A stretch of DNA of 64,000 nucleotides from Candidatus Omnitrophota bacterium (GTDB taxonomy: Bacteria > Omnitrophota > Gorgyraeia > Zapsychrales > JANLHA01). This document shows, one piece after another, positions 25,333-26,879 of this stretch (position 1 is the stretch's first letter; each line of letters starts with the position of its first letter). The notes below the pieces were generated by a model, which worked only from the letters and a program-made list of their open reading frames with translations, did not search any database and was not told where the DNA came from. The translations under genes and the position numbers were made by a program. Location: positions 25,447 through 89,446 of the forward strand of contig JACKFJ010000002.1 of the NCBI GenBank assembly GCA_020632535.1, in the 5' to 3' direction.

Positions 25333-26400
25333 TTATTGCAATAATTTAACTAATTTTGTAACAGCGCCTTTAATCATCCCCGCGCATTCTTCATATGTGT
25401 CAAAGGATTTTCCCATTGGATCAGGAATGTCTAAATCGCCATCGTAACCGGGACGTTCTTGCAAAAACTCTCGCAATTGATAAACTCTCTTCTCGACGGA
25501 TGGAACACGTTCCAAAACCTGCTGACGATGATTACGCGTCATCACAAGAATCAAATCTGCCTTACGAAGCAAAATGCTATTAATCGGCTGTGATTGATGA
25601 CGACTGGCATCAATGCCTTCTTTACGTAAAACGCTAATCGTTTCTGAGCTTGCTGATGTATGAAAATACACTGCCGTCCCTGCTGACAAAACTTCAACAT
25701 TAGACTGTGCTTTCAACATATTTTTCAAAAGATATTCAGCCATAACCGAACGACAACTGTTTCCCGTGCAAACAAACAACACAAGTTTTTTTTGAGTGAT
25801 TCGATCAACATCACTTTGCGTAATTGGCCCTTCACGCAAAACAATTGGTCTCTCTTTTGTAAAGTCCACGACTGACGAAGCTAACCCAAACTTTGCCTCT
25901 CCACCATCAATAGCAATGTCCACAAGCCCATCAAGATCTTTAAGCGCATCCGCACAAAACGAAGGAGCCGGATTACCAGCACAATTTGCCGACGGAGCCG
26001 CGACTGTACATTGCGACTGCTGAACAAGATTAAGAGCAATGGTATGTTGCGGAATACGGACACCGATTGTCCGCCCCTCTTCATACGATGGGACAACAAC
26101 TGTCAAAGGACCTGGCCAACATTCATCAATCATCTTGTAAACCTCTGGAGACTTTATCGGGGTATAATTCGGCAAAAGAGACTTTTGCGCAATATGAATC
26201 GAAAAAGGCTTACCAGCATCACGGCGTTTGACATCACGCAAACGAGCCATAGCTTGCGGATTATTAAAATCTGCAGCAATGCCATAGACTGTTTCTGTAG
26301 GAAAAACGACAAGCCCCCCTTTACGGATTATACTCGCACAATGCGCGATACGATCCATTTCCGGGAACTCTGGATTAATTGTGATAATTTGCGTTTTCAA
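25333..26400 (-). CDS. Fusion: threonylcarbamoyl-AMP synthase (TsaC/YrdC domain) + low-molecular-weight protein phosphatase
   Basis: 355 aa. The N-terminal half carries VVFPTETVYGIAAD...KPFSIHI (YrdC). The C-terminal half carries VLFVCTGNSCRSVMAE (CX5R(S) P-loop) and a D-P motif. Confidence 0.88.
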   Translation of the reverse strand: MKTQIITINPEFPEMDRIAHCASIIRKGGLVVFPTETVYGIAADFNNPQAMARLRDVKRRDAGKPFSIHIAQKSLLPNYTPIKSPEVYKMIDECWPGPLTVVVPSYEEGRTIGVRIPQHTIALNLVQQSQCTVAAPSANCAGNPAPSFCADALKDLDGLVDIAIDGGEAKFGLASSVVDFTKERPIVLREGPITQSDVDRITQKKLVLFVCTGNSCRSVMAEYLLKNMLKAQSNVEVLSAGTAVYFHTSASSETISVLRKEGIDASRHQSQPINSILLRKADLILVMTRNHRQQVLERVPSVEKRVYQLREFLQERPGYDGDLDIPDPMGKSFDTYEECAGMIKGAVTKLVKLLQ

Positions 26401-26879
26401 GACAACCGACTTTTTAATACTTTTTCTTGTTGCGCTTTTGAAAAAGTAGACAGTTTTTTAGCCAATACTTTATCGGACAAAGCAAGAATCCGAATTGCCA
26501 ATAAAGCCGCGTTCTTCGCTCCACTTTTACCAATGGCAACCGACGCGACTGATACTCCCAAAGGCATTTTTACCATCGGAAGAAGTGAGTTACAATTGCT
26601 GACAATTGTTTTGACCGGAACAGAAATAACCGGCAAATGAACACGCGCGGCAACTCTACCCGCTAAAGATGCGGCACCGCCAGCACTGCAAATAATCACT
26701 TTGACATCTTTTGCTTCTGCGTGCTTGACGTATTCTACAATTTCCCGCGAAGACTGACGCGCGGACAAAACTTTAATTTCATTCCTAACACCAAAGTCAT
26801 TTAAAATCTTAACGCCTTCCGCCATTATCGGGGAATCTGATTTATTACCCATCATAATTACAACTTTAATCTGATCCAT
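26397..26879 (-). CDS. PurE-family protein (N5-CAIR mutase homologue) lacking the conserved catalytic His
   Basis: It aligns end to end with PurE (GNKSD, AGGAA, VKMPLGVSVASVAIGKSGAKNAALLA). It reads SARQSS where PurE has SAHRTP, and AASLAG where PurE has AAHLPG. Preferred start at 26879 (SD GGTGGGG); track start at 26909. Confidence 0.8.
   Translation of the reverse strand: MDQIKVVIMMGNKSDSPIMAEGVKILNDFGVRNEIKVLSARQSSREIVEYVKHAEAKDVKVIICSAGGAASLAGRVAARVHLPVISVPVKTIVSNCNSLLPMVKMPLGVSVASVAIGKSGAKNAALLAIRILALSDKVLAKKLSTFSKAQQEKVLKSRLS

Follow-up and report, generated by a model that had tools for sequence, protein, structure and literature searches.

The purE locus

The 64,000-nucleotide stretch of DNA analysed here (the window; positions 25,447 to 89,446 of contig JACKFJ010000002.1, from a Candidatus Omnitrophota bacterium of a small, uncultivated lineage) carries a purine biosynthesis (pur) operon whose last gene is a purE without the catalytic histidine of its family. 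PurE is a textbook enzyme, dependent on one acid/base residue for which there is no substitute, and a target for antibacterial drugs. A natural PurE orthologue that lacks this residue, sits in an intact and strongly selected operon and is itself under selection makes a clean test case.

26397..26879, minus strand: purE, encoding a 160-aa PurE orthologue without the catalytic His (Pfam AIRC, TIGR01162, AlphaFold2/Foldseek)

The product is a full-length PurE homologue that is predicted to adopt the alpha/beta/alpha fold of class I PurE. Its match to Pfam AIRC (PF00731) covers profile positions 1-147 of 148 (E 2.7e-45, 154 bits), and the nearest solved structures found with HMMER are class I enzymes from Thermotoga maritima (1o4v, 1e-32) and E. 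coli (1qcz, 1e-30). Class II structures match far more weakly, with E values from 2e-12 to 2e-4 overall (Treponema denticola 3rg8, 2e-12; human PAICS, ~2e-5). The AlphaFold2 model is confident throughout (predicted local distance difference test score, pLDDT, 89.5; predicted template modelling score, pTM, 0.87) apart from one weak stretch at residues 91-100, and when the model was searched with Foldseek the top 50 matches were all class I PurE, with template modelling (TM) scores of 0.88-0.93. The model was built on an alignment dominated by canonical PurE, and it gives the fold and not the coordinates of the pocket.

Identity to the nearest canonical proteins is 59-62%, and in a HMMER search of 1.84 billion representatives the protein formed a 50%-identity cluster of its own. 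An identical protein is deposited at NCBI as MCB9771434.1 under the public name 5-(carboxyamino)imidazole ribonucleotide mutase. Automatic annotation is unreliable for this gene: the sequence scores 153.2 bits against the NCBIfam purE model TIGR01162, 3.6 bits over the cut-off of 149.6, and is given the mutase name despite having no catalytic residue. Pathway reconstructions of these metagenome-assembled genomes (MAGs) may therefore be wrong at the PurE step. The gene looks expressed, judging by a Shine-Dalgarno-like GGTGGGG that precedes its ATG. There is also an alternative 170-aa open reading frame (ORF), which starts at an upstream ATG at 26909 and overlaps purD.

Remodelling of the active site

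A sequence-only reading of the window had reported a PurE homologue lacking the catalytic His at this position, and the alignments bear it out. In ungapped HMMER alignments to solved PurEs the catalytic His (E. coli His45) is matched by Arg41, Arg46 by Gln42 and His75 by Ser71, where canonical GGAAHLPG becomes GGAASLAG. That reading had described the loss as the exchange of His and Arg for Arg and Gln in one loop and of His for Ser in another. Those substitutions are real, and the loss is wider than it had described, taking in Ser16, Asp102, Gln109 and Pro115 as well. The loops concerned are as follows.

26835..26852, minus strand: P-loop, codons 10-15, M-G-N-K-S-D against canonical M-G-S-K-S-D; Ser16 replaced by Asn, Asp19 kept
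26748..26765, minus strand: 40s loop, codons 39-44, S-A-R-Q-S-S against canonical S-A-H-R-T-P
26757-26759, minus strand: codon CGT for Arg41 (E. coli His45), in the 40s loop
26754-26756, minus strand: codon CAG for Gln42 (E. coli Arg46), in the 40s loop
26658..26687, minus strand: 70s loop, codons 65-74, S-A-G-G-A-A-S-L-A-G; the A70-G71 backbone site for CO2 or carboxylate is kept
26550..26597, minus strand: 100s loop, codons 95-110, N-C-N-S-L-L-P-M-V-K-M-P-L-G-V-S against canonical G-L-D-S-L-L-S-T-V-Q-M-P-P-G-V-P

The known roles of these residues show what has gone. In characterised enzymes Ser16 and Arg or Lys at position 46 grip the substrate phosphate, Asp19 grips the hydroxyls of the ribose, the aminoimidazole and the carboxylate are touched by Ser43 and by the backbone at A70-G71, and the catalytic His is the sole available proton acceptor at C4 (PMC10484210, PMC9376930). 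PurE enzymes of both classes, I and II, universally conserve this His, and putting Asn, Gln or Trp in its place in the E. coli enzyme, or Asn, Phe, Ala or Ser in that of A. aceti, abolishes activity (PMC9376930). In the window protein both the phosphate-binding serine and the basic residue at position 46 have been replaced, by Asn12 and Gln42. By alignment, then, the protein lacks the acid/base and phosphate-clamp side chains that known PurEs need.

A second His-less protein, described below, makes it possible to separate shared changes from private ones. Among 118 canonical relatives, 57 alignment columns are at least 95% conserved. The window protein departs from the consensus at 16 of these 57 columns and its sister at 17, with 13 changes identical in both (E. 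coli numbering: S16N, H45R, R46Q, P48S, A55V, A75S, H83R, G90S, G100N, D102N, T107M, Q109K and P115S). Three of them (G90S, D102N and P115S) are encoded by differing synonymous codons in the two lineages. The changes cluster in the four loops of the active site, with 11 of 25 conserved columns altered there in both His-less sequences and 3 of 32 in the remainder of the protein (Fisher p=0.004). The loop contributed by the neighbouring subunit is among those altered, the window protein carrying G100N, D102N, T107M, Q109K, P112L and P115S in its 100s loop. Both sequences nonetheless keep Asp19, Ser43 and A70-G71, and the window protein also keeps Gly15, Ser18, M110-P111 and the C-terminal helices. 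With Arg41 and Lys104 gained and Asp102 lost, the pocket of the window protein carries more positive charge.

One explanation for this pattern is that the protein is still an enzyme that converts 5-aminoimidazole ribonucleotide (AIR) to its 4-carboxy derivative (CAIR), as an AIR carboxylase or an N5-carboxyaminoimidazole ribonucleotide (N5-CAIR) mutase, with a rewired, His-independent active site. The candidate acid/base at C4 would be Lys104 (E. coli Q109K) of the neighbouring subunit, its pKa lowered by Arg41, and Arg41 would further stand in for the lost Arg46 in binding phosphate or carboxylate. We think this unlikely, though it is the main rival to the reading favoured below. The clustering of changes in the pocket speaks for it, as do the 13 identical replacements, three of them with differing codons; the paired H45R and Q109K, together with D102N and S16N, have been preserved in both lineages, and the contacts to ribose, imidazole and CO2 (Asp19, Ser43 and A70-G71) are kept. 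Every His45 substitution tested in the literature, on the other hand, left trace activity at most (PMC9376930), although His-to-Arg is not reported among them.

A different explanation is neofunctionalisation, in which the protein would act on or bind a different, more anionic ligand and CAIR would come from another gene. The more positive pocket, the missing Ser16/Arg46 phosphate clamp and the concentration of changes around the substrate site in a protein kept by selection all fit this idea, and LarB, which uses the PurE fold on a pyridinium nucleotide, is a precedent in principle. The LarB model itself, however, scores the protein far under its threshold (23 vs 175 bits) and the LarB N-terminal domain is missing. 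For this and for reasons that emerge from gene order and substitution rates below, a new ligand seems doubtful.

Authenticity and distribution of the His-less form

A missing catalytic residue in a MAG naturally raises the suspicion of error, and the sequence-only reading had itself listed a sequencing or assembly mistake among the ways in which its claim might fail. Compared with the canonical siblings, the DNA of the 40s loop shows a single point substitution per codon over a run of four codons (CAT CGG ACT CC(A/G) in the siblings, CGT CAG TCT TCG in the window), with no frameshift or indel in the loop. A compensated frameshift or indel was considered as the source of the altered motif and is ruled out by these four single-base codon changes. 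The Logan contig L002 (run SRR12358676) is 100% identical to the window over 5632 bp; it is a separate assembly, probably made from the same reads as the MAG. Finally, a second His-less lineage has been recovered from three other samples (Logan ERR13669122 and ERR13669126, and ENA ERZ24842383, contig Omnitrophota_Kpj58rc_NODE_608). Its protein is 83% identical, also 160 aa long with no indels between the two, and reads SLRQTS in the 40s loop. The R-Q substitutions whose conservation the sequence-only reading had proposed to check are thus kept in a second lineage. Because the substitutions are clean, the independent assembly is identical and a second lineage carries the same replacements, sequencing or assembly error is excluded as the source of the His loss.

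Beyond these two sequences the histidine is nearly ubiquitous. It is present, in the motif SAHR(T/S)P, in 118/118 other top matches from a search of 5.8 billion protein clusters, in 164/164 further loci from GTDB genomes and Joint Genome Institute (JGI) metagenomes, and in 143 of 149 diverse 50%-identity representatives, the exceptions being second domains of tandem PurE-PurE' proteins and one standalone protein, P0201. No further His-less members turned up in GTDB species genomes or JGI contigs, where the best match is 55% identical and all read SAHR; the GTDB representatives scanned do not include the window's own genome. The His-less clade is accordingly tiny, with two distinct sequences among the 5.8 billion clusters. 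A literature search on Omnitrophota purine metabolism and PurE pseudoenzymes found nothing relevant.

P0201, which lies outside the window, is a 172-aa standalone PurE homologue without the His that reads VMRGRDVEE where its relatives have VLSAHRTPE. To judge from this motif, its His may have been lost independently, in a second such event, or a compensated frameshift may lie behind the sequence.

Operon structure and orthology

The window purE is the last pur gene of its operon, after purD, and the genes around it are laid out as follows.

34572-35867, minus strand: purB, pur operon
33784-34488, minus strand: purC, pur operon
30804-33701, minus strand: purS-purL fusion (purSL, 965 aa), pur operon
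29989-30702, minus strand: LOG/SLOG-like gene (PF03641 Lysine_decarbox and PF18306)
29210-30010, minus strand: purQ, pur operon
28212-29213, minus strand: purM, pur operon
26893-28209, minus strand: purD, pur operon, adjoining purE
25333..26358, minus strand: Sua5/YrdC-low-molecular-weight phosphatase fusion (sua5), downstream of purE and in the same slot in canonical relatives

All of the pur operon genes upstream of purE (26893..35867) are intact and strongly constrained, with ratios of non-synonymous to synonymous substitution rates (dN/dS, or omega) of 0.003-0.098 against L167, the locus of the second His-less lineage. The gene order purB-purC-purSL-LOG-purQ-purM-purD-purE-sua5-rpiB-glyA-nrdR is common to the window, to L167 and to two canonical sibling loci, L003 (encoding the PurE P0007) and L005 (encoding P0003), the latter from the window organism's own sample. 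Because the His-less gene occupies the slot of the canonical purE in this shared order, its position fixed by the downstream sua5 fusion, synteny identifies it as the positional orthologue of canonical purE and not as a paralogue. A decaying paralogue, which the sequence-only reading had named as another way for its claim to fall, is therefore not what lies here. The same conservation of order bears on the idea of a new ligand, since no new neighbouring genes accompany the altered pocket.

A neighbour-joining tree places the His-less pair basally in the Omnitrophota PurE clade, on a long branch. This basal placement was treated as long-branch attraction, because synteny and the identity of neighbouring genes make L003 and L005 close relatives.

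Several other features of the region are worth recording. The LOG-like gene between purS-purL and purQ keeps the same position in L003, L005 and L167, with an omega of 0.019. A fused gene at window 47933-50107 (minus strand), inside a biotin gene cluster, joins a BioA aminotransferase to a BioD-like AAA_26 domain. The His-less lineage (window ~19327-19531, and L167) is without an esterase gene (PF00756) and a 211-aa gene, which lie between a 224-aa gene and metC in the canonical siblings (L003 18051-19595, L005 15383-16927).

Evolutionary rate and selection

Comparison with the canonical siblings shows that purE has changed faster than its surroundings. Protein identity between the window and L003 or L005 is 72-94% for 13 of 15 neighbours and 61-71% for a nudix gene and the uncharacterised 224-aa gene, whereas PurE falls to 59-60%. 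Between L003 and L005, where both proteins are canonical, PurE is 97% identical and level with NrdR as the most conserved protein of the region. Non-synonymous divergence (dN) between the window and L003 tells the same story, reaching 0.28 in purE where seven neighbouring genes have 0.04-0.19. Only purE, and only in the His-less lineage, shows the acceleration.

Within that lineage, omega was estimated for 20 genes from a single pairwise comparison of the window with L167, over synonymous divergence (dS) of about 0.35-0.64. The values for purE and the genes around it were as follows.

purE, window: omega 0.21, the highest of the 20 genes, with the lowest protein identity (83%)
purQ: omega 0.098
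purM: omega 0.053
purSL: omega 0.050
purD: omega 0.043
sua5: omega 0.024
purC: omega 0.016
purB: omega 0.003

The omega of canonical purE is 0.041, about one fifth of that of the His-less gene. Set against nine pooled neighbours, the His-less gene shows an excess of non-synonymous change (odds ratio 4.1, p=2e-8). Its omega is nevertheless below 1 (p=1.6e-10), and in a substitution-only neutral simulation the probability that the open frame would be kept in both lineages by chance was about 0.002. The gene is under purifying selection and is maintained as a protein.

These results bear on the notion of a slowly decaying, functionless relic, or else of a sequencing or assembly artefact. Such a gene might be expected to show what is seen here, the highest amino-acid rate in the region and a narrow clade. 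Yet the same omega lies significantly below 1, an intact 160-aa frame persists in both lineages against the neutral expectation, and the identical Logan assembly, the motif in a second lineage and the clean codon substitutions leave little room for artefact; we consider a relic or an artefact very improbable.

Since the split of the two lineages, the former active-site loops have changed at 6 of 38 positions and the rest of the protein at 21 of 122, a rate that is no slower in the loops, and first-shell positions that were formerly invariant still vary between the lineages (A44L, A74S in the sister lineage and P112L/A). The two His-less proteins are identical throughout region 108-136, a core strand and helix. 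That the pocket has not been especially conserved after the split, in a clade of two distinct sequences, counts against a new ligand. A rewired AIR-to-CAIR enzyme faces the same difficulty from the differing first-shell residues (A44L, A74S), and a further one in an omega that is the loosest of 20 genes, against the much lower values for canonical purE and purC.

Sources of CAIR

The pur operon leaves little doubt that the cell needs CAIR. PurC is nearly invariant within the His-less lineage, and CAIR must therefore still be required. The alternative that the cell salvages its purines and retains the pathway just as far as AIR, for thiamine, was entertained and rejected on the same ground, the omega of 0.016 for purC.

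The 58 ORFs of the window include no purK, no ATP-grasp gene and no second AIRC gene. The sequence-only reading had seen no purK in the operon, which is correct and holds for the full 64 kb, but it had counted this absence and the loss of His75 as anomalies alongside the loss of His45. Only the last is one. Position 75 is His in classical class I PurE, Ala in the sibling Omnitrophota proteins and Ser in the window protein; canonical Omnitrophota PurEs read GG(S/A)AAL(A/S)G, and the 14 Omnitrophota purE loci compared are all without a purK-like gene in the vicinity. Because the canonical members already have Ala75 and no neighbouring purK, the lack of His75 and of an adjacent purK is the ancestral state of the Omnitrophota group. 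The association extends more widely: of 169 loci (the window plus L003-L168), 67 of the 134 with His75 have purK next to purE, as do none of the 35 without it (Ala75, in Omnitrophota and their allies, or Ser75). Class-I-like PurEs without His75 may form a PurK-independent subclass, possibly of direct AIR carboxylases.

Several of these observations favour a rewired enzyme. The very strong purifying selection on PurC, PurB and the upstream enzymes means that CAIR must be made, and the His-less gene is the sole PF00731 gene seen in the 64-kb window, in the orthologous operon slot. Its ancestor was also already without His75 and a neighbouring purK, and may already have used a non-classical, CO2-dependent mode.

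A probable pseudo-enzyme

Despite these points, the interpretation favoured here, which we hold with about even confidence, is that the protein is a pseudo-PurE that stands off the main pathway flux in a structural, ligand-binding or otherwise lesser role, while CAIR is supplied by a gene outside the window. It is favoured because the sole maker of CAIR should match the constraint on PurC and canonical PurE, yet this is the least constrained gene of those compared, and because the side chains known to serve the chemistry and to bind the phosphate are lost.

The history of such a protein runs as follows. The gene was inherited vertically from a canonical purE in a narrow Omnitrophota lineage, on whose stem point substitutions rebuilt the substrate pocket (His45 to Arg, Ser16 to Asn, Arg46 to Gln). 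The loop from the neighbouring subunit was altered too (G100N, D102N, Q109K and P115S), with the fold, the core and the oligomer-forming helices kept. The lost residues, the orthology, the clustering of changes in the loops and the mode of selection are shown by the sequences; from them we infer that normal PurE chemistry was lost in the process, leaving a protein that is not the cell's main source of CAIR and that presumably persists in a folded, selected but weakly constrained state. The CAIR used by the conserved PurC would then come from a second enzyme encoded outside the 64-kb window.

A number of observations weigh against a pseudo-PurE. The alternative CAIR source that it requires is hypothetical, and no second purE, purK or AIR carboxylase candidate occurs in 64 kb. 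The gene has kept its slot at the end of the pur operon and its Shine-Dalgarno-like sequence, and the protein has kept the ligand-contact elements Gly15, Ser18, Asp19, Ser43 and A70-G71, all of which also fit a working enzyme. That the 13 remodelled residues are identical in both lineages could point to a new functional site and not to relaxed constraint. Moreover, the omega of 0.21 lies within twofold of four ordinary neighbours (0.11-0.13) and rests on one pairwise comparison of two distinct sequences.

The sequence-only reading had left three options, that the protein is inactive, that it uses Arg in a different mechanism or that it has another substrate; on the present evidence these appear to be narrowed in part. 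If the protein is active, it would represent a second catalytic solution for AIR carboxylation, the first His-independent PurE and a natural case of catalytic-residue migration. If it is inactive, it would be a bacterial pseudoenzyme caught soon after the loss of function, and it would imply that these Omnitrophota have a CAIR-forming enzyme that was transferred or has gone unrecognised. That said, only two distinct sequences represent this form so far, and all of it could have a mundane cause in a second purE.

Comparison with known systems

The closest known system is class I PurE (PF00731, TIGR01162), here in the Ala75 type of the Omnitrophota (e.g. P0003 and P0007). The His-less protein shares full-length homology, the predicted fold and the operon slot with these enzymes, and differs from them in having no His45, Ser16 or Arg46, in G100N, D102N, Q109K and P115S, and in a fivefold higher omega. 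The classical class I signature, A-A-H-L-P-G with His75 and a purK partner, is absent from the protein and its 64-kb window.

Class II PurE, as in T. denticola (3rg8) and human PAICS, resembles the His-less protein in lacking both His75 and a visible purK partner. In class II, however, the catalytic His is still present and position 46 is basic (PMC9376930), and the similarity of the window protein to them is far weaker than to class I. Where the class II motifs are S-A-H-K and G-R-S-N-G/A-L, it reads S-A-R-Q and G-G-A-A-S-L.

LarB, the nickel-pincer cofactor carboxylase/hydrolase, shares the AIRC fold and shows that this fold can serve another heterocycle. The sequence-only reading had raised a LarB-like activity. 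Against the LarB model NF033503, the protein scores 23.1 bits (cut-off 175) over profile positions 80-165 of 209; it has no N-terminal domain and no lar gene context, and identity as a LarB is excluded.

The nearest parallel for a maintained PurE domain without the His is PurE', the second domain of the tandem PurE-PurE' proteins of the Methanobacteria type (P0121, P0123, P0124, P0129 and P0159). An intact PurE' is required for tandem proteins to complement purE and purK mutants, and a structural role has been suggested for it (PMC3261824). PurE' is always fused C-terminal to a canonical PurE, whereas the Omnitrophota protein is a standalone 160-aa ORF between purD and sua5. The two have also changed in opposite places. 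In PurE' the P-loop and the 40s and 70s loops are degenerate and the 100s loop D-x-L-L...V-Q-M-P-x-G-x-P-V is kept (D-A-L-L in this set), a pattern that would fit a domain that merely donates its 100s loop to a neighbouring active site. In the His-less protein most of the P-loop and the 70s loop is kept and the 100s loop is changed. It is clearly derived from a canonical Omnitrophota purE and represents an event independent of PurE'.

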